Part shown: one piece after another, positions 4,971 through 20,491 of the stretch
Layout: each line of letters begins with the position of its first letter
How positions within the stretch are numbered: position 1 is the stretch's first letter
UHGV virus genome: UHGV-0385359
Reading direction: 5' to 3' (one strand)
Length of the DNA: 48,983 nt
Origin: a virus
Program-made: the position numbers and the translations under genes
The notes under the pieces: generated by a model
Told to the model about the DNA's origin: nothing
What the model saw: the letters and a program-made list of their open reading frames with translations, nothing else
Database searches by the model: none

Positions 4971-5497
4971 TGGCGCAACTCCATCAGTTCATTGAATCGG
5001 GTCATGAAAAGCCCAAACGCCTGCCCGGGGCGAAGAGGGTATATTTCAAACAAATCTGTCGGTGGAATACCTTCCAGCATCACCCACGGAATACTGTCAT
5101 CGATATCCAGATCTCGGCGTTCGGTCGCGAGCATGGTCAGGTCGGCATATTTAACGAGGTATGTCTCGTTAAGCGGCAGGCCGAACTTCAGGCGGATCAG
5201 TTGATCTGTGCGCGTCTCGATCCGGCGGTAGTCTGGCAACAGTGCTTTAAGTGGTGCCGGGATGTCCTGGCAGTACGCCTCTGCGGCATCATGCATCAGC
5301 GCTTCAAAGGCGAACTCTGGCGCCACGAGCTGGCTGCACAGAACGGAATGCTGCGCCACGCTGTAAAACTCTGGCAGGTGTCCAGCAAAACGGCAGATAT
5401 TAGAAAGTGCGCCAGCGATATCCTCAATATCAATATCGTCAACTGTTGAGTTGAGATAATCAAATTGCTTGCCAGAAAGCGTCTGGATAAAGCTCAT
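4958..5497 (-). CDS. yfdR: HD-domain phosphohydrolase (YfdR-like 5'-deoxynucleotidase family)
   Basis: 179 aa with NICRFAGH...YSVAQHSVLCS...EALMHDAAEAYCQDIPAPLK, matching the CPS-53 YfdR / YfbR HD-hydrolase signature as recalled. Confidence 0.7.
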   Translation of the reverse strand: MSFIQTLSGKQFDYLNSTVDDIDIEDIAGALSNICRFAGHLPEFYSVAQHSVLCSQLVAPEFAFEALMHDAAEAYCQDIPAPLKALLPDYRRIETRTDQLIRLKFGLPLNETYLVKYADLTMLATERRDLDIDDSIPWVMLEGIPPTDLFEIYPLRPGQAFGLFMTRFNELMELRQCAA

Positions 5498-5628
5498 CGT
5501 TATTTCTCCTTATTTTGCGCGCTGCACCGCGCGATTTTTGGTTGCACGAATCCCTCGCCGGATGGCGATAATTAATGGAATTACGCTTCAATAAATCCCC
5601 GCGGCGCCGGGGATTTAATGCAGAGCAA

Positions 5629-6456
5629 TTAGGCTTTAAAGTTACCGATGAAAGTTTCCACTGATTCACCGTCGAACTTGCTGATCAGTAAATCGCGGAA
5701 TTCGTTGGCGATCGCTTCTTCCTGGGCTTCAAGTTGGACGATGCGCAGAACAAAGCAGGGTTCATCGCTGGTCAGCAGGCTGTTACGCAAGCTAAAGCGG
5801 CGTTCGCCCAGACCTTCATACGGCACACATTTGAATTCGAACGCTACCGGCATTACGTCTTTGCTGCTTGCTTCGACGCTTTGCATGAGTGATTTTTTAC
5901 CAGCGAAATCACCAGTTTCATGATCCTGCTGGGTTGCTTGTTGGATAGTGATACGACGCACGGCCTGAGCCGCCTGAGAAATCTCCATCGTCTTACCATC
6001 AGCGTCAAACGCCAGCAGGTAATCACTCCAGTCTTCCAGCCATTCAGCGATTTGCTTTTGTTTCAGACGCTGACCATCGATCTGTAGTAGCGCGCGAAAC
6101 GGGGCGGTTTTCTTCAGAGTGATTGAAGCAACGTTATCGGCGTGACCGGGGTTATCCAGGGTGCCGATGTTGAATACTGAACGGGCGGTCATGTTGTCAG
6201 CGTCAATGAAGCAACGAGCTGGCTCGCTGGCGCTGGCATAACCTTTAGAATAACGTGCGAAGTCGTCAATACTGGTTGTGGTCATTGCGCCACGAAAGCG
6301 GAAACGTTCCAGAGAAAAGCGCTCAAGGCTTTCAACGCCAGTACCCTCTGGCAGTAATGCGGTCGGGCAAGCCAGGCCATGAATATCATTCAGGTGATAA
6401 CCGGAAAGGACCAGGTCTTTGACCTGCTTGAAGGTGCCGCTGTCTAACTGAGACAT
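5629..6456 (-). CDS. yfdQ: YfdQ-like (DUF2303-type) prophage protein
   Basis: 275 aa. Sits directly upstream of the YfdR-like gene, as in CPS-53. Confidence 0.55.
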   Translation of the reverse strand: MSQLDSGTFKQVKDLVLSGYHLNDIHGLACPTALLPEGTGVESLERFSLERFRFRGAMTTTSIDDFARYSKGYASASEPARCFIDADNMTARSVFNIGTLDNPGHADNVASITLKKTAPFRALLQIDGQRLKQKQIAEWLEDWSDYLLAFDADGKTMEISQAAQAVRRITIQQATQQDHETGDFAGKKSLMQSVEASSKDVMPVAFEFKCVPYEGLGERRFSLRNSLLTSDEPCFVLRIVQLEAQEEAIANEFRDLLISKFDGESVETFIGNFKA

Positions 6457-6512
6457 AAAAATTCCTTATTAATAGATGATCGAAGTGGTATCAGTGACTT
6501 TGTTGTTGCGGA

Positions 6513-6884
6513 TCACTGAGCCGCTTTAAGCTTTCCGTCCACCGCGCCGGTGATCCCGAACAGTTGCCCCTGATCCTCCTGGAGGATGGTTAGCTTCCCG
6601 CCTTTGTTAACCCACATAGGGGTTTCGGTTGTGTCCTCTTCGGAGGCTTTACCGCGCGGGGTTGGGGTGCTGTAGTTCAGCTTGTGCTTGATCTTGACGC
6701 GCTTCTCTTCAACGGAATTACCCATACGCTCAAAATCAAAGGTGAGGACTACTTTGCCTTTGTTGCCGTTGTTCAGAACGCCAAGCGCGGTGGTGTTAAG
6801 TGCTGCCGCGATTTTGTTCATGAACACACCGGCATCCAGCTCGCCCAAAAAGTCGGGCACTACGGTCATGCGGTCATTACTCAT
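6513..6884 (-). CDS. hypothetical protein (yfdP position); start trimmed to an RBS-supported Met
   Basis: GAGGG-N7-ATG at 6884. First gene of the leftward early operon, downstream of the PL-like region. Confidence 0.45.
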   Translation of the reverse strand: MSNDRMTVVPDFLGELDAGVFMNKIAAALNTTALGVLNNGNKGKVVLTFDFERMGNSVEEKRVKIKHKLNYSTPTPRGKASEEDTTETPMWVNKGGKLTILQEDQGQLFGITGAVDGKLKAAQ

Positions 6885-7170
6885 GGTTTTACCCTCGTTA
6901 TGGCGGCTGCCACCGCCGAACTTTCTCCATACACAACAGAGAAGGGCACCTGCATTTGTCGGCGACTGCAATCGCTATCCTCTTGCCCGGGTGGATTGGG
7001 TTATGAGCCCGTCGCCCGGTGATGCCCTTGTCTGTTGTGTAAAAAGGGCGGTACCGAGGTAGAACATTATCTTCGTCCCCCTTGCATAAGGTTGAAGACC
7101 CTGGTACCGCCAAGACTACACACAGCAATACTGGAACTACGGTTATCACGGTCCTGAGCGTGATTTTTTC

Positions 7171-7324
7171 GACAGGTATCTTCGGGCGGGGTGCCAGTGA
7201 CTAGCTGGCAACCCTACGGTGTTCCATAGCTGGTGTCCGTGGGTTCGACGGGACCGTGTCCACCAGGTGAGCGCGCTGGATTGGTAGTCACTCCAAACCG
7301 CAACCCCTCCCGAAGATACCTGTC
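7171..7324. promoter_or_regulatory. large structured inverted-repeat element in the PL leader (21-bp arms with one mismatch, nested inner helices)
   Basis: gacaggtatcttcgggcgggg (7171-7191) is complementary to cccctcccgaagatacctgtc (7304-7324). Nested complementary pairs inside: agtgacta/tagtcact and ctggtg/caccag. Confidence 0.5.
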
Positions 7325-7425
7325 AGCGAATCATCCGGTCATTCATACGCCACCGGCGGCTACTTCGTGGGCTTCCTGCCTGTTCGCTGTTGATGAATAC
7401 ATAATTAACCAATAGATAATATTTG

Positions 7426-7463
7426 TAAATAACCAATGGTTAATTTTGTGGGTTTTATAAGGT
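7426..7463. promoter_or_regulatory. OL operators (TTAACC-N3-GGTTAA family) and leftward early promoter region
   Basis: ttaaccaatggttaa (7449-7463) and a half-matched ttaaccaatagataa (7426-7440). The same motif recurs in OR upstream of cI/cro. Confidence 0.5.
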
Positions 7464-7541
7464 AATCAATTGTTTTTTAATGTTATTTATTTTTCTTAAA
7501 TAATGGTGATATGATTAAAAAAACACCGATAGGGGGTGGTA

Positions 7542-7748
7542 ATGGAACGTGACGAACTGGAAGAAGACCGAGCAGCTTTCATTGCGGGTGAGATTGGCGG
7601 CGTGGTTATTCAGTTAATTATTGATGGCGTTGAAATCAATCGGGACAACATCGTTGACTATCTGGAGGCCAAGCGCAGGGCGGTAGGGAATGTGATCCAC
7701 AAGGGGATACTGCGCGATTCAGCTGCAATGGTGAGAAAAGGGCAATAA
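7542..7748 (+). CDS. hypothetical small acidic protein
   Basis: AGGGGG RBS 6 nt before the ATG at 7542. Terminator hairpin immediately downstream. Confidence 0.45.
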   Translation: MERDELEEDRAAFIAGEIGGVVIQLIIDGVEINRDNIVDYLEAKRRAVGNVIHKGILRDSAAMVRKGQ

Positions 7749-7775
7749 AAAACCCGGCGCGGTGGCCGGGGTTAT
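7749..7775. terminator. bidirectional hairpin terminator between convergent genes
   Basis: cccggcgcggtggccggg hairpin flanked by A-run and T-rich sequence. Lies between the plus-strand gene and the SecB-like gene. Confidence 0.5.
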
Positions 7776-8140
7776 TCTGCTATAACCACTGGTAAGTTTA
7801 TGTTGTTGTATCCCGCCAGTCGAGTTGTTGCAATAGTGAACGCTCTTACATAAGGATACAGGGTGTTAACAACAATTGCTGTTGCCAATTCTTCGTGCGC
7901 GTCCGTCTCGCTCATGTCTCTGTCAAATTTCACAACAGCCATTTGGGTGGCGTTAAATATAAACTTCTCATTTTTAATGAGTTTAAGTGACAGCGCGAGC
8001 CTAAAACTGCGTTTGTCTTTAGTATTGTAATCGACGGCAGTATCTATGCTCATAGTAAATTCTTTACCGTCACTTGTTTTTTCTGTCGTGCGAGTAAGAC
8101 TGAAAGAGTCCACCCACATACTGGAAATTACAAATTTCAT
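7772..8140 (-). CDS. SecB-like chaperone (toxin-antitoxin-chaperone TAC component)
   Basis: 122 aa. Aligns with E. coli SecB along its length, e.g. TLYPYVRAFTIATTRLAGYNNINLPVVI versus [29 protein letters not shown]. Immediately downstream of the antitoxin. Confidence 0.75.
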   Translation of the reverse strand: MKFVISSMWVDSFSLTRTTEKTSDGKEFTMSIDTAVDYNTKDKRSFRLALSLKLIKNEKFIFNATQMAVVKFDRDMSETDAHEELATAIVVNTLYPYVRAFTIATTRLAGYNNINLPVVIAE

Positions 8141-8150
8141 AATATTTCCA

Positions 8151-8666
8151 TTAATGTGTCTTTTCTAAGAGAGTTGTTTCAACGGCAAATTCATTCACCC
8201 AAGAATTTGAAAAAGATACTTGTTTGAACCATGTAGTCTGAACTCTAGTAGAAACACCAGCCTTTTCACAAAGGTCTGCAAAAACAGCAGGGTAAGAATC
8301 AGCCACACGAAGTAACTTGTCCATCGACTCAGACTGGATCACATCGTTGTTTTCATATTTGGTGAAGGCATTTGGTCCACCGCCAAAAACAAGTGAAGCC
8401 TCATCTTGTGTTAGTCCAAGCCGGATGCGAATGTCGTAAACTTCTTTGCCAGTAAGCAATCCATCCACTTCTTTTTTGAAGCAATTCATAACTCGTTTAT
8501 TGTATTTGAGTTCGCTTGCACCCACTTGCTCTACATGACAAGAATCACAGATAAAGTAAGTATCAGTAACTTGTTTTATCCTGCCTTTATAAGTGATCTG
8601 ATCCTCTTCCATCTTCTTAGTCAGATGTCCTTTGCCGCAAAGGGGGCAAATCTCTCCATTTTTCAT
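8151..8666 (-). CDS. MqsA-like antitoxin (Zn-ribbon + XRE HTH) with C-terminal aromatic-rich extension (putative chaperone-addiction segment)
   Basis: CPLCGKG...CDSCH zinc ribbon. LTQDEASLVFGGGPNAFTKYENN...MDKLLRV matches the MqsA HTH (LTQKEASEIFGGGVNAFSRYEKGN..TIKLLRV). Extra ~45 aa C-terminus (…WFKQVSFSNSWVNEF…). AGGAGG RBS before the ATG at 8666. Confidence 0.8.
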   Translation of the reverse strand: MKNGEICPLCGKGHLTKKMEEDQITYKGRIKQVTDTYFICDSCHVEQVGASELKYNKRVMNCFKKEVDGLLTGKEVYDIRIRLGLTQDEASLVFGGGPNAFTKYENNDVIQSESMDKLLRVADSYPAVFADLCEKAGVSTRVQTTWFKQVSFSNSWVNEFAVETTLLEKTH

Positions 8667-8682
8667 AAAGCCTCCTGAGTAG

Positions 8683-9078
8683 CTATGATGTGTGGTAAGA
8701 AACAGTAGTGACAACATTTCCAGCTGAATCGATGCAAAATTTAATATAAAAGTGACAATCCATTTCCTTGTAAGCAGCTTCTATCCATGCACTTTCAACC
8801 CAGGTATATGAGTCACACGCAGCCCAAGTATCTGGTTCGCTAAGCTCGCACCATTCTGACTGGTGAAACCTACCGCCTGTTACAGCATGTTTGATAATGT
8901 TCTTTAAGTCATCAGCATCTTTAGATAGGTCTCTAAGGTTTCTCCTGCACTTCTTAGTGCCGATCACCATAGTTGCAGCATCTATAATACTCAGGATGTC
9001 AGCATAAAGCGGGCCACCTGGGATTTGTTGTTTCTCCCCAGGAAAGTCTGATGAATGACGACTCACTATAGTTACCAT
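8683..9078 (-). CDS. MqsR-like toxin (putative mRNA interferase); start uncertain
   Basis: Sits directly upstream of the MqsA-like gene (toxin-first order, as in mqsRA). Weak but colinear similarity to MqsR, e.g. the C-terminal HFYIKFCIDSAGNVVTTVSY region versus YLKITVIHDVLIVSF. Confidence 0.5.
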   Translation of the reverse strand: MVTIVSRHSSDFPGEKQQIPGGPLYADILSIIDAATMVIGTKKCRRNLRDLSKDADDLKNIIKHAVTGGRFHQSEWCELSEPDTWAACDSYTWVESAWIEAAYKEMDCHFYIKFCIDSAGNVVTTVSYHTS

Positions 9079-9174
9079 TATGGTAAGTTCACTCCTTCCA
9101 TGTCAATGCAGATTGTGCTTATAGTTACCTACGCTTCCTGTACGTCTGCAGCATACTGTTGTCCGATTACGAAC

Positions 9175-9273
9175 TTATGCCCCCGGTGTGGCATACCCAC
9201 CCACAACAAACCAGGTTAAGAATGCGACTGCAACGATAAACACCAATATGGGGAAGGCTATCCCAATTCTCAT
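9175..9273 (-). CDS. small hydrophobic peptide (32 aa: MRIGIAFPILVFIVAVAFLTWFVVGGYATPGA)
   Basis: Strong RBS GGAGGG-N4-ATG. Single predicted TM helix. Below the ORF-track size cutoff. Confidence 0.45.
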   Translation of the reverse strand: MRIGIAFPILVFIVAVAFLTWFVVGGYATPGA

Positions 9274-9355: not shown

Positions 9356-9433
9356 TCACCAGTAAACGAGCAACTGTACGATCACAACGACAACAAGCAA
9401 CGTAACAAACCCAATAATCAGATTGTCTCTCAT
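9356..9433 (-). CDS. small hydrophobic peptide (25 aa: MRDNLIIGFVTLLVVVVIVQLLVYW)
   Basis: ATG with double stop TGATGA. Tandem and co-oriented with the other small membrane ORFs. Weak RBS. Confidence 0.3.
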   Translation of the reverse strand: MRDNLIIGFVTLLVVVVIVQLLVYW

Positions 9434-9614: not shown

Positions 9615-9809
9615 CTAAAGAAAAAGCACCACTACGGTCACAGCTACAAACGCAGCAAAAAGCATAGCCATGACGACAATGGCAAATGTCGTTGAATCCT
9701 GAATGTATGTTTTCTCCTGGCCCCTCATTGGGCCAAAAAATATAATCCAAATGAAGATGGCGGTGATTGAGATAACAGTGACTGCTATGAAAAACAGAAC
9801 CTCTCTCAA
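9615..9809 (-). CDS. small membrane protein (64 aa, two TM segments)
   Basis: TTG start preceded by G-rich SD-like AAGGGGGGG. Strongly hydrophobic. Confidence 0.4.
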   Translation of the reverse strand: MREVLFFIAVTVISITAIFIWIIFFGPMRGQEKTYIQDSTTFAIVVMAMLFAAFVAVTVVVLFL

Positions 9810-9910: not shown

Positions 9911-10066
9911 TCAAAGAGACATGCCGATAACGGCATTAACCACACTGGACGCCATAAACACGCCACCAACGATGAAACTCGCCTGGTTCTTCCTGGTAGC
10001 GCCAAGAGTCAACAGAACCACTGAAAGGGCAAAGAAAGGTATCGCGATTATGCTGAACGTGTTCAT
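9911..10066 (-). CDS. small membrane protein (51 aa, two TM segments) immediately downstream of cI
   Basis: AGGA-N8-ATG. The start lies 11 nt after the cI stop codon. MNTFSIIAIPFFALSVVLLTLG... Confidence 0.45.
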   Translation of the reverse strand: MNTFSIIAIPFFALSVVLLTLGATRKNQASFIVGGVFMASSVVNAVIGMSL

Positions 10067-10076
10067 GTATTTCGTC

Positions 10077-10811
10077 CTATAGGCGATTGTATCTAATGGA
10101 CTCGTGTATCAACGCTTTACCCATTACATACAGCTGGTCTTGCGATTTTTCATCAATGTACCACTTCTCATAAGCTGGGTTATCAGAGAGAACGGCAAGG
10201 CGATCACCCTGCATCTGAAGGCGCTTGACGTGGAACGTTCTGCCGTACACGAAAGAGTAAACGCCATCAGTCTGGAAATGCCGGACTGATATATCGACGA
10301 ACAGCCGATCCCCGGAAACGAGAGTAGGCGCCATGCTGTCACCATTGACAGTCATCACTTTCACATCTTCATGAGAGCGATTTCCGAAGAGTGAACGGGC
10401 ATGCTCGGTGGTGAACTCGATTGCATACAGCACTTCAACATAGTCCGAAAGCATGTAGTTTCCGGGGCCAGCACTGACAGCCAGATCCAGAACTTCAACG
10501 CGATAAACATCCTGATCAGAATTATTAACCATGCGTTTCACTTCCCCAGAATCAGTGGCCTCACCTACACCGTACTCCAGCCATTCCGCGCGGACGCCAA
10601 GCACTTTGCTGAGGGCTACTATTTTCTGACTGTCTGGGATGGCTTGGGCATTGAACCACTTCCAAACTCCAGGTGTAGTTATCTCTACCCCAGCTTTATT
10701 AAGCAGGTCCGCAAGGTTTTTATTTCTTCCGCGCCCCGTCAACCCTGCAAGCTGGCAAACGTGTAGCAATCTGGCCGTGAAGCCTTCTTTCGTTTCGTCT
10801 CTCTTAACCAT
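10077..10811 (-). CDS. cI: CI-type prophage repressor (HTH + S24 LexA-like peptidase)
   Basis: N-terminal HTH. C-terminal GDSMAPTL...KR (Ser/Lys dyad autocleavage domain). Divergent from cro across an operator region. Confidence 0.85.
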   Translation of the reverse strand: MVKRDETKEGFTARLLHVCQLAGLTGRGRNKNLADLLNKAGVEITTPGVWKWFNAQAIPDSQKIVALSKVLGVRAEWLEYGVGEATDSGEVKRMVNNSDQDVYRVEVLDLAVSAGPGNYMLSDYVEVLYAIEFTTEHARSLFGNRSHEDVKVMTVNGDSMAPTLVSGDRLFVDISVRHFQTDGVYSFVYGRTFHVKRLQMQGDRLAVLSDNPAYEKWYIDEKSQDQLYVMGKALIHESIRYNRL

Positions 10812-10876
10812 TGGTTAAATATCCGGGAACTTGACTTTACTGTCAGTTAATATTTATTATTAACTTGTGGTTAATT
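10804..10876. promoter_or_regulatory. OR operator cluster / PRM-PR region
   Basis: ttaaccattggttaa (10804-10818), ttaacttgtggttaa (10862-10876), and a palindromic gttaatatttattattaac site between them. Same TTAAC-N5-GTTAA motif as at OL. Confidence 0.55.
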
Positions 10877-10894
10877 TTGAAATCAGGAGAGATA

Positions 10895-11143
10895 ATGAAC
10901 GCTGTAGAAATTGCAGTTGACGCTGTTGGCGGGCAAACAGCAGCCGCAAAAATTTGCGGTTTATCCCCGGTAGCAGTCCACAGATGGGTTAAGAACGCCT
11001 GTCTTCCGCGGACTGAATACACCAAAAAAACGGAATACGCAGAGCTACTTGCAGCTAATTCAGCAGGTAAGTTTACGGCCGCGTGGCTGCTGGAAAACGC
11101 AAATCCTGATCGCCCTGAAAAGGTAAATGATTCAGCGGCCTAA
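10895..11143 (+). CDS. cro: Cro/YdaS-family transcriptional regulator
   Basis: 82 aa. CAGGAGAG RBS. GGQTAAAKICGLSPVAVHRW HTH typical of YdaS/Cro-like proteins. Divergent from cI. Confidence 0.7.
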   Translation: MNAVEIAVDAVGGQTAAAKICGLSPVAVHRWVKNACLPRTEYTKKTEYAELLAANSAGKFTAAWLLENANPDRPEKVNDSAA

Positions 11144-11171
11144 ACATAACCACAGAATCAAGGGGTTAACC

Positions 11172-11663
11172 GTGGGTAACGAACCTGAGTGGAAAGTGGA
11201 GCGTCAGCCAGCATGGCTGGTGGCCGCAATTAAAAAGACCATCACCGAACTTCCTGGCGGATATGCAGAAGCAGCGGAATGGCTGGGAGTGACAGAAAAC
11301 TCTCTTTTCAATCGGCTACGCATTGAAGGAGACCAAATCTTCCCGCTTGGCTGGGCGCTAGTGTTACAGCGCGCTGGTGGCTCAAACCATATAGCTGACG
11401 CCGTAGCCCGCCATTCAAACGGTGTCTTTGTTCCGCTTGCAGATGTTGATGATGTGGATAACGGGGATATCAATCAGCGCCTTATGGAGTCGATCGAATG
11501 GATTGGCAAACATTCTCACTACGTCCGTAAAGCCACTGCTGACGGAATCATTGATGAGGCAGAACGAGCTCAGATCGAGGAGAACAGTTACAAGGTCATG
11601 GCTAAGTGGCAGGAACACATCACGCTGCTGTATCGCGTTTTTTGTGTTTCTGAAAAAGAGTGA
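11172..11663 (+). CDS. CII-like regulator (YdaT / 186-CII family); GTG start inferred
   Basis: HTH AEAAEWLGVTENSLFNRL resembles 186 CII / YdaT. AAGGGG-N6-GTG. An alternative ATG at 11127 lies inside cro. Confidence 0.5.
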   Translation: MGNEPEWKVERQPAWLVAAIKKTITELPGGYAEAAEWLGVTENSLFNRLRIEGDQIFPLGWALVLQRAGGSNHIADAVARHSNGVFVPLADVDDVDNGDINQRLMESIEWIGKHSHYVRKATADGIIDEAERAQIEENSYKVMAKWQEHITLLYRVFCVSEKE

Positions 11664-19826: not shown

Positions 19827-20023
19827 ACGGCTGTGGTCACATATCTGGGGTCTGGTACGCATGGGGAGCCTGTGCTGGTTTACCTGTTGTACTCCCCGGG
19901 CCGGAGTGAAAAAAATTTTCCTGGCAGATCTTGAAAACTGTGTAAGAGGGATTATTTTAATTATCGGACAAGCAATGCTTGCCTCTATGTTGAGCTTTTG
20001 AACAGGAATTCAGGAGGTTAATT

Positions 20024-20491
20024 ATGGCACTCAGAACCTTGTCAGCACTCCCGGTATTTGCTGATTCCATTTTCTCAGACCGTTTCAACAGGATTGACAG
20101 ATTGTTCAGTCAGTTAACGGGGGATACCCCTGTAGCGGCTGCGCCTTCATACGATCTCAAGAAACAGGATTCGAATCGTTATCAACTTACGGTAAGCGTT
20201 CCCGGCTGGAAGGAGGATGAGCTTGAAATTGAAACCGTGGGTGGAAACTTGACTGTTGCTGGTAAGCGGGCCGAAGAATCTTCAGAAGAAAAGGAAAACT
20301 GGATATATCGTGGTATCCGACGCGCGGATTTCCAGTTAAGCTTTTCTTTACCTGAACACACTAAAGTGAGCGGTGCAAAACTGGAGAATGGTCTTCTGCA
20401 GGTGGATATTTACCAGGAAATTCCTGAAAGTGAGAAGCCTCAGAAAATAGCGATAGAGAGCAATCAGAAAGTGATAGAACATAAATCATAA
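20024..20491 (+). CDS. small heat-shock protein (Hsp20 / IbpA-IbpB family)
   Basis: 155 aa. The alpha-crystallin domain aligns with E. coli IbpA (YQLTVSVPGW..EL.I...G.LTV.GK....E...NWIYRGI..R.F...F.L.E...V.GA.LENGLL.VD). CAGGAGG RBS. Confidence 0.8.
   Translation: MALRTLSALPVFADSIFSDRFNRIDRLFSQLTGDTPVAAAPSYDLKKQDSNRYQLTVSVPGWKEDELEIETVGGNLTVAGKRAEESSEEKENWIYRGIRRADFQLSFSLPEHTKVSGAKLENGLLQVDIYQEIPESEKPQKIAIESNQKVIEHKS

Follow-up and report, generated by a model that had tools for sequence, protein, structure and literature searches.

A probable MqsRAC-type toxin-antitoxin-chaperone module in the rex position of a lambdoid prophage

The viral genome UHGV-0385359 (48,983 nucleotides (nt), analysed over its whole length and referred to here as the window) carries on its minus strand three adjacent, co-oriented genes that follow one another in the order toxin, antitoxin, chaperone and are closed by a single terminator after the third gene, the arrangement of a toxin-antitoxin-chaperone (TAC) module. 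The putative toxin gene (8683–9078) encodes a divergent MqsR-like protein of 131 amino acids (aa), the antitoxin gene (8151–8666) a 171-aa member of the MqsA family, and the chaperone gene (7772–8140) a 122-aa protein resembling the SecB-like chaperones of TAC systems, of the short, CmdC-like class. Sixteen nucleotides separate toxin from antitoxin, with AGGAGG preceding the antitoxin ATG, and 10 nt separate antitoxin from chaperone. The intrinsic terminator at the end of the module (7753–7770, minus strand) was located by a terminator scan as a G+C-rich hairpin and T-run, with a stem of six G-C pairs followed by TTTTTTATTG; the hairpin is bidirectional and common to the module and a convergent 70-aa open reading frame (ORF). 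A preliminary description had listed the same three tightly spaced genes, which we recovered at identical coordinates, and both its observation and its interpretation of them are supported by the analysis that follows.

The second protein had been named as an MqsA homologue, and it scores well above the curated cut-offs of both models for this family. Pfam MqsA_antitoxin (PF15731) matches aa 7–130 at 2.5e-21 (76.6 bits, cut-off 30), NCBIfam TIGR03830 matches at 6.5e-35 (119.7 bits, cut-off 61.8), and the Escherichia coli MqsA structure 3gn5 aligns over aa 7–130 at 1e-13. This core (aa 1–130; 8277–8666, minus strand) comprises the zinc ribbon, with Cys 7, 10, 40 and 43, and the helix-turn-helix (HTH) XRE domain of MqsA, in which N99 and K103 correspond to the DNA-reading residues N97 and R101 of E. 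coli MqsA. The C-terminal extension (aa 131–171 and stop codon; 8151–8276, minus strand) lies outside all MqsA matches, which end at aa 130–131, and is a candidate chaperone-addiction (ChAD) element. An aromatic-rich tail of about 45 aa had been predicted; the tail exists, at 41 aa, and its five aromatic residues (W146, F147, F152, W156 and F160) fall inside one 15-residue stretch. At the level of sequence, the antitoxin thus appears to have the ChAD-type extension of a TAC antitoxin.

The SecB likeness proposed for the third protein also stands, with TAC chaperones as its closest counterparts. The protein falls just under the Pfam SecB cut-off (23.4 bits against 26, E = 6.1e-5) and reaches 14.9 bits on the equivalog model for export SecB, TIGR00809 (cut-off 102.8); it ends 14 residues past the long helix, without the SecA-binding C-terminal region of export SecB. 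The PADLOC model PDLC04071, which represents CmdC, the chaperone of PD-T4-9/CmdTAC, matches it over its full length at 1.9e-8. Because of these SecB scores and the full-length PADLOC match we assign the 122-aa protein a SecB fold and regard it as a putative chaperone, short and CmdC-like, and not a housekeeping export SecB. The PADLOC toxin and antitoxin models for PD-T4-9 find no match in the module, which places it outside CmdTAC.

The likeness of the first protein to MqsR is more distant and becomes visible through its family. A search of 1.84 billion representative sequences returned 323 relatives at E ≤ 1e-3, mostly of 135–146 aa, and Pfam MqsR_toxin was matched by 13 of 54 sampled relatives (best 2.6e-7). 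Comparison of the family profile with E. coli MqsR by hhalign gave E = 1.8e-4 and a probability of 49% over 89 columns, and the fold of the toxin, which is of the MqsR/RelE-like type, superposes on MqsR at 2.4 Å over 89 residues. The protein exceeds E. coli MqsR in length, having a more extended beta-hairpin and, at the N-terminus, an additional conserved segment, and the family has an invariant set of its own, Y25, W76, D89 and K113. We therefore place the predicted toxin in a divergent, longer branch of the MqsR fold. The preliminary description would have been undermined by a third protein without a SecB fold and a first protein without an MqsR-like fold; both folds were found. Neither phmmer nor profile searches with the toxin and the chaperone gave any match among PDB sequences.

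The toxin start deserves comment, as one RefSeq model of the Citrobacter koseri toxin (WP_199977216.1) is 127 aa long. Within the start region (9066–9078, minus strand) this model implies initiation at a GTG at codon 5 and not at the conserved ATG, which lies inside a palindrome described below. We rejected the GTG start: the codon is GTA or GTT in the related loci L009, L010 and L127. A toxin start reading MVN is present in 53 of 150 family representatives.

The module lies within a lambda-like immunity region. Upstream of it and co-oriented is a gene for a cI-type repressor with HTH and S24 peptidase domains (10077–10811, minus strand; Peptidase_S24 1.4e-16), and cro-like and cII-like genes (10865–11663) diverge from cI. 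A repeat search identified operator palindromes (families D1, D3 and I1, I5–I7), among them CI operators of the TTAACCAATGGTTAA type resembling those of a left operator (OL) at 7403–7448, which match the right operator (OR) copies at 10804–10885; promoter-like sites occupy the minus strand at 7443–7401. Since OL and OR flank the module, it is enclosed by the immunity region, in the place that rexAB takes in lambda, between cI and OL with its leftward promoter (PL) and in the orientation of cI. The rex position given in the preliminary description is thus borne out by operators on both flanks, but the module does not abut cI. The interval of about 1 kb between cI and the toxin gene, not mentioned there, contains three or four small hydrophobic ORFs on the minus strand (9911–10066, 9615–9809, 9356–9433 and 9175–9273, of 51, 64, 25 and 32 aa), a run that is conserved with the module behind different repressors. 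A YoaK label (PF28021) given to the 32-aa product by a precomputed annotation in locus L004 was not reproduced with Pfam. The terminator scan found no strong terminator in this interval, which makes read-through from the cI promoter into the module plausible.

Several further features of the region stand beside these. The convergent 70-aa ORF (7536–7748, plus strand), between OL and the chaperone gene, matches phrog_3975 (unknown function) at 3e-35; it is present in loci L001–L005 and absent in L006. The TTAACCAATGGTTAA-type CI operators resemble both MqsA-type operators (AACC...GGTT) and the palindrome at the toxin start, a likeness that is probably coincidence. Just left of OL, two long and almost perfect inverted repeats (7171–7192/7303–7324, 22 nt, 95%, and 6930–6948/7023–7041, 19 nt, 95%) stand where one would look for nutL or for early-left terminators. 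Elsewhere in the prophage, at 19966–20030 on the plus strand, the Rfam FourU RNA thermometer model (RF01795) matches at full length and scores 84.6 bits, above its gathering score of 60 (E = 3e-15).

The start of the toxin gene is itself marked by a regulatory candidate, a 15-bp palindrome TTACCAT-W-ATGGTAA (9072–9086) that overlaps both the toxin start codon and a −10-like CATAAT. It occurs once in the window, where none would be expected by chance, and in 15 of the 16 loci first examined, once in each and always on the toxin ATG, in hosts ranging from Enterobacteriaceae to Acinetobacter and Sedimenticola. Among viral contigs, 120 contain the palindrome, mostly as chance matches, and 12 of these have a toxin homologue at it; these 12 were retrieved by the palindrome pattern and so are not independent evidence of its conservation. 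The published MqsA operator is AACCT N3 AGGTT (PMC4894380), and that of Pseudomonas putida, TTAACCT GGA AGGTTAA, overlaps the mqsR ribosome-binding site (PMC5422877). The palindrome has the same ACC-N5-GGT spacing as these operators and is a probable MqsA-type operator. An RNA hairpin formed by the palindrome and sequestering the AUG was considered and rejected (z −0.95 against shuffled sequences), the minimum-energy structure leaving the palindrome arms unpaired.

Two observations on repeated sequence touch this element. A 10-nt sequence, reading GGTAACTATA on the coding strand, is repeated exactly and in direct orientation at 9067–9076 and 9120–9129, 53 nt apart; the first copy corresponds to the palindrome's right arm together with the opening toxin codons, the upstream copy may be an extra operator half-site, and the repeat was seen only in window-type loci and L127. 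In the viral contig L092, three copies of the 15-bp palindrome lie at 35-bp spacing (1519–1603), and no toxin homologue was detected there.

Exactly 14 nt upstream of the palindrome lies a −35-like hexamer, TTGACA (9101–9106, minus strand), which together with the CATAAT inside the palindrome (9077–9082, minus strand) was scored by a promoter scan as TTGACA-18-CATAAT with 11 of 12 matches. This spacing of the hexamer is shared by the window, L003, L009, L010, L127, L050, L072 and L046, and by L012, where the hexamer reads TTGACT, while the sequence between it and the palindrome diverges. The −10 hexamer includes the A and T of the toxin ATG, and transcripts from this element would therefore start after the toxin start codon. 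It is conceivable, though doubtful, that transcription begins here a few bases inside the toxin ORF and gives messages for antitoxin and chaperone only, the toxin mRNA being made solely by read-through from the cI promoter. Were this the case, the dose of toxin would be tied to the lysogenic state and the antidote made independently and under autoregulation, a regulatory design without precedent described for TAC or MqsRA systems, and the operator sequence would in part determine the conserved Met-Val-(Asn/Thr) with which toxins of this family begin. A leaderless toxin mRNA was also considered and rejected, there being no −10-like hexamer at the required distance upstream of the ATG.

To place the module among its relatives, we compared its proteins and their gene neighbourhoods. 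All three match C. koseri entries exactly, labelled hypothetical protein, MqsA family antitoxin and protein-export chaperone SecB, and close relatives come from Enterobacter, Salmonella, Klebsiella and Phytobacter; an identical toxin is present on 22 contigs. Megablast and blastn of the module yielded no match to the three genes, either among phage records or in any complete E. coli genome. Toxin, MqsA and SecB-like genes follow cI directly in Escherichia phage PhiR70_1, where they are annotated as hypothetical, and in Klebsiella phage 2b LV-2017, where they are unannotated, with toxins 44–49% identical to that of the window. Eight further genome loci, recovered with a narrow toxin alignment and ranging from Enterobacter to Acinetobacter, Pseudoalteromonas and Verticiella, include seven with a toxin homologue, a long-tailed MqsA and a third gene; in three of these seven (L011, L012 and L016) the third gene has no Pfam SecB match. 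Of the 12 IMG/VR contigs with the toxin, 10 have the whole triplet, immediately preceded in 9 of the 10 by a CI-like repressor. Across relatives, identity spans 31–89% for the toxin and 40–91% for the antitoxin.

The boundaries of similarity indicate what moves together. Across six loci the cassette is found behind three different repressors. Phages with another repressor share the window from 10068 to 7509 or 7731, with sharp BLAST junctions, and in L009 (Enterobacter) and L127 homology is limited to 9113 down to 7741 and 9153 down to 7740, respectively. What these last two have in common comprises the three genes, with the promoter-like element before them and the terminator after them.

The third protein falls into two classes barely connected by BLAST, one of 122–126 aa and CmdC-like, to which the window belongs, and one of 149–167 aa, and the sequence of the antitoxin tail changes together with the chaperone class across loci. 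ChADs are transferable, ChAD-chaperone pairs being modular (PMC5105189), and the co-variation seen here fits that published modularity. It seems that ChAD and chaperone are exchanged jointly on a conserved toxin-antitoxin (TA) core. Two outlying loci were also seen. In L014, a metagenome-assembled genome of Pseudohongiellaceae, the toxin occurs with a short-tailed MqsA of 156 aa (4986–5906) and no chaperone gene, and the genes downstream (6132–6751 and 6792–7567) look by eye like MazE/MazF and Phd/VapC pairs, suggesting a TA island. In L013, an uncultured gammaproteobacterium, toxin and a 198-aa long-tailed MqsA are followed by a third gene (5969–6271) for a 100-aa protein with no SecB signal, which could serve the antitoxin tail as an alternative partner.

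Taken together, these features are best read as an MqsRAC-type TAC module that serves as an accessory rex-position cassette of a lambdoid prophage, most likely protecting the lysogen against other phages, to which we give a probability of about 0.75. Under this reading the toxin would be an endoribonuclease of MqsR/RelE fold, as its published relatives imply, and would be bound and neutralized by the zinc-ribbon domain of the antitoxin, while the HTH domain would bind the palindrome and autoregulate the operon. The aromatic tail would destabilize the antitoxin unless held by a tetramer of the SecB-like chaperone. The lysogen would express all three genes, with at least part of the transcripts reading through from the cI promoter. 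On infection by another phage, an abundant unfolded phage protein might compete for the chaperone; the antitoxin would then be degraded and the freed toxin would cut RNA, leading to aborted infection or cell dormancy.

A number of observations weigh against this reading. Of the profile hidden Markov model checks suggested in the preliminary description, the one with Pfam MqsR_toxin (PF15723) gave no match to the 131-aa toxin itself at E ≤ 1, nor did Foldseek of the toxin against PDB return any. PADLOC recognizes the chaperone alone in the module, the antitoxin tail is short and aromatic only locally, and in the sole strong promoter-like site the −10 falls on the toxin ATG. The residues reported to be important in making E. 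coli MqsR toxic are K56, Q68/69, Y81 and K96 (PMC5422877, citing Brown 2009), and in the hhalign alignment just one of the four is kept, Y81 as Y111. K56 aligns with Q73, in a variable column, Q68 with C88, a near-invariant Cys of the toxin family, and K96 with H129, a near-invariant His. Because three of the four are not kept, the chemistry or target of the toxin may differ from that of MqsR. We regard it as possible, if less probable, that a toxin of MqsR fold has an activity or target other than GCU-specific, ribosome-independent mRNA cleavage, for instance as a His/Asp/Lys-based RNase of another specificity or by action on tRNA or rRNA. The retained tyrosine, the superposition on MqsR and the treatment of such TAC toxins as MqsR in published work (PMC5105189, PMC9519451) argue against it; as it concerns the effector step only, it is compatible with the TAC reading.

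Other explanations differ on what the module is for. As an addiction or stabilization device, it would kill or arrest cells that lose the prophage, the supply of labile antitoxin and chaperone ending while the stable toxin persists, with defence absent or secondary. Such behaviour is classical for type II TA modules on mobile elements, and a cassette that travels as a unit among prophages with different repressors, with its own promoter-like element and terminator, would suit it. We nonetheless consider it unlikely: the closest tested systems, MqsRAC of E. coli C496_10 and the same-locus HigBAC, defend when cloned on plasmids (PMC9519451; 10.1101/2024.02.24.581848), the rex position has been described as a variable defence locus (10.1101/2024.02.24.581848), and simple addiction needs no chaperone layer. 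A stress-responsive regulator of host growth, in which unfolded host proteins titrate the chaperone and bring on persistence or dormancy under proteotoxic stress, is how the Mycobacterium tuberculosis HigBA1-SecB(TA) system was first interpreted (PMC3581621, PMC5105189), and cells that express MqsRAC become persister-like once attacked by T2 (PMC10783111). Here, however, the module is phage cargo in an immunity region and recurs in isolated temperate phages, which points to a lysogeny-linked benefit and not to host housekeeping, making this role quite improbable. That the module is an ordinary two-gene MqsRA pair next to a general chaperone or an unrelated phage gene is highly improbable. The chaperone-less pair of L014 and the third gene of L013 would be in keeping with it; against this, the third gene of the window follows the antitoxin stop by 10 nt and shares its terminator, it is found in nearly all relatives and co-varies with the antitoxin tail, and its product is not an export SecB, as its TIGR00809 score and its end shortly after the long helix indicate.

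MqsRAC systems and a TAC module in the rex position have both been published, so the module described here adds a member to a known class, and the current picture of TAC biology is unchanged by it. As architecture and location are already in the literature (MqsRAC of RC385 and C496_10; HigBAC downstream of cI), its interest is lower than the preliminary description had rated it. The palindrome on the toxin start codon and the pairing of one TA core with two distant chaperone classes both appear to be unreported. With this module, the MqsRAC class of chaperone-gated defence systems gains a member from prophages of Citrobacter and related Enterobacteriaceae, and the class is seen to occupy the rex locus repeatedly, behind repressors unrelated to one another. 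With the toxin publicly labelled hypothetical, the chaperone labelled as export SecB and PADLOC detecting the chaperone only, such modules could escape defence-system surveys. The operator on the toxin start codon, the paired swapping of ChAD and chaperone, and the non-canonical conserved residues of the toxin offer handles for experiments.

In position and logic, the module recalls lambda RexAB, accessory genes between cI and OL that are co-oriented with cI, expressed in the lysogen and exclude other phages; there is no sequence or mechanistic relationship between the two. The two-gene MqsR/MqsA systems of E. coli K-12 and P. putida share the antitoxin fold, the zinc ribbon, the HTH with its Asn DNA-reading residue and a palindromic operator of the same ACC-N5-GGT spacing, but have no tail and no chaperone; their toxin is 98 aa long with K56, Q68, Y81 and K96, and their operator has the half-site AACCT in place of TTACCAT and is not placed over the start codon. 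By profile, the chaperone is most like CmdC, from CmdTAC (PD-T4-9) of E. coli ECOR22, but in that system the toxin CmdT ADP-ribosylates mRNA and CmdA has no relationship to MqsA (PMC9519451, PMC11618068).

Among the closest known systems are further TAC modules, including HigB1-HigA1-SecB(TA) (Rv1955–Rv1957) of M. tuberculosis. HigBAC of E. coli NT1F31 likewise belongs to a lambdoid prophage, in a variable locus that lies downstream of cI and is occupied by rexAB in lambda, and its trigger is the tail protein gpV, which competes for the chaperone (Mets et al., bioRxiv 10.1101/2024.02.24.581848). Aromatic residues of its ChAD dock into the chaperone; its pair is HigB/HigA, however, and its ChAD has 96 aa with four spaced aromatics, against 41 aa here. 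TACs with MqsRA pairs have been catalogued and were validated for Vibrio cholerae RC385 (PMC3581621, PMC5105189), where Vcho-MqsRA needs its SecB-like chaperone; the tests made on this system concerned chaperone addiction alone and did not extend to defence (Bordes et al., 2016, PMC5105189). It too has a dedicated SecB-like chaperone, and its ChAD, aa 136–176 of a 176-aa MqsA, corresponds closely to aa 131–171 of 171 in the window. The Vcho-TAC cloning primer encodes a toxin start of MVNNAIN, matching the MVN of the toxin family, a link that we infer from primer and gene sizes; the system differs in host and context and is not described as prophage rex cargo. The same design of MqsR-type toxin, MqsA-type antitoxin and SecB-like MqsC is found in MqsRAC of E. 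coli C496_10, which we liken to the module by description and not by sequence. Its toxin is neutralized only by antitoxin and chaperone together (PMC9519451; PMC10783111), and the system defends against T2, a defence that extra chaperone abolishes (Vassallo et al., 2022, PMC9519451; PMC10783111).

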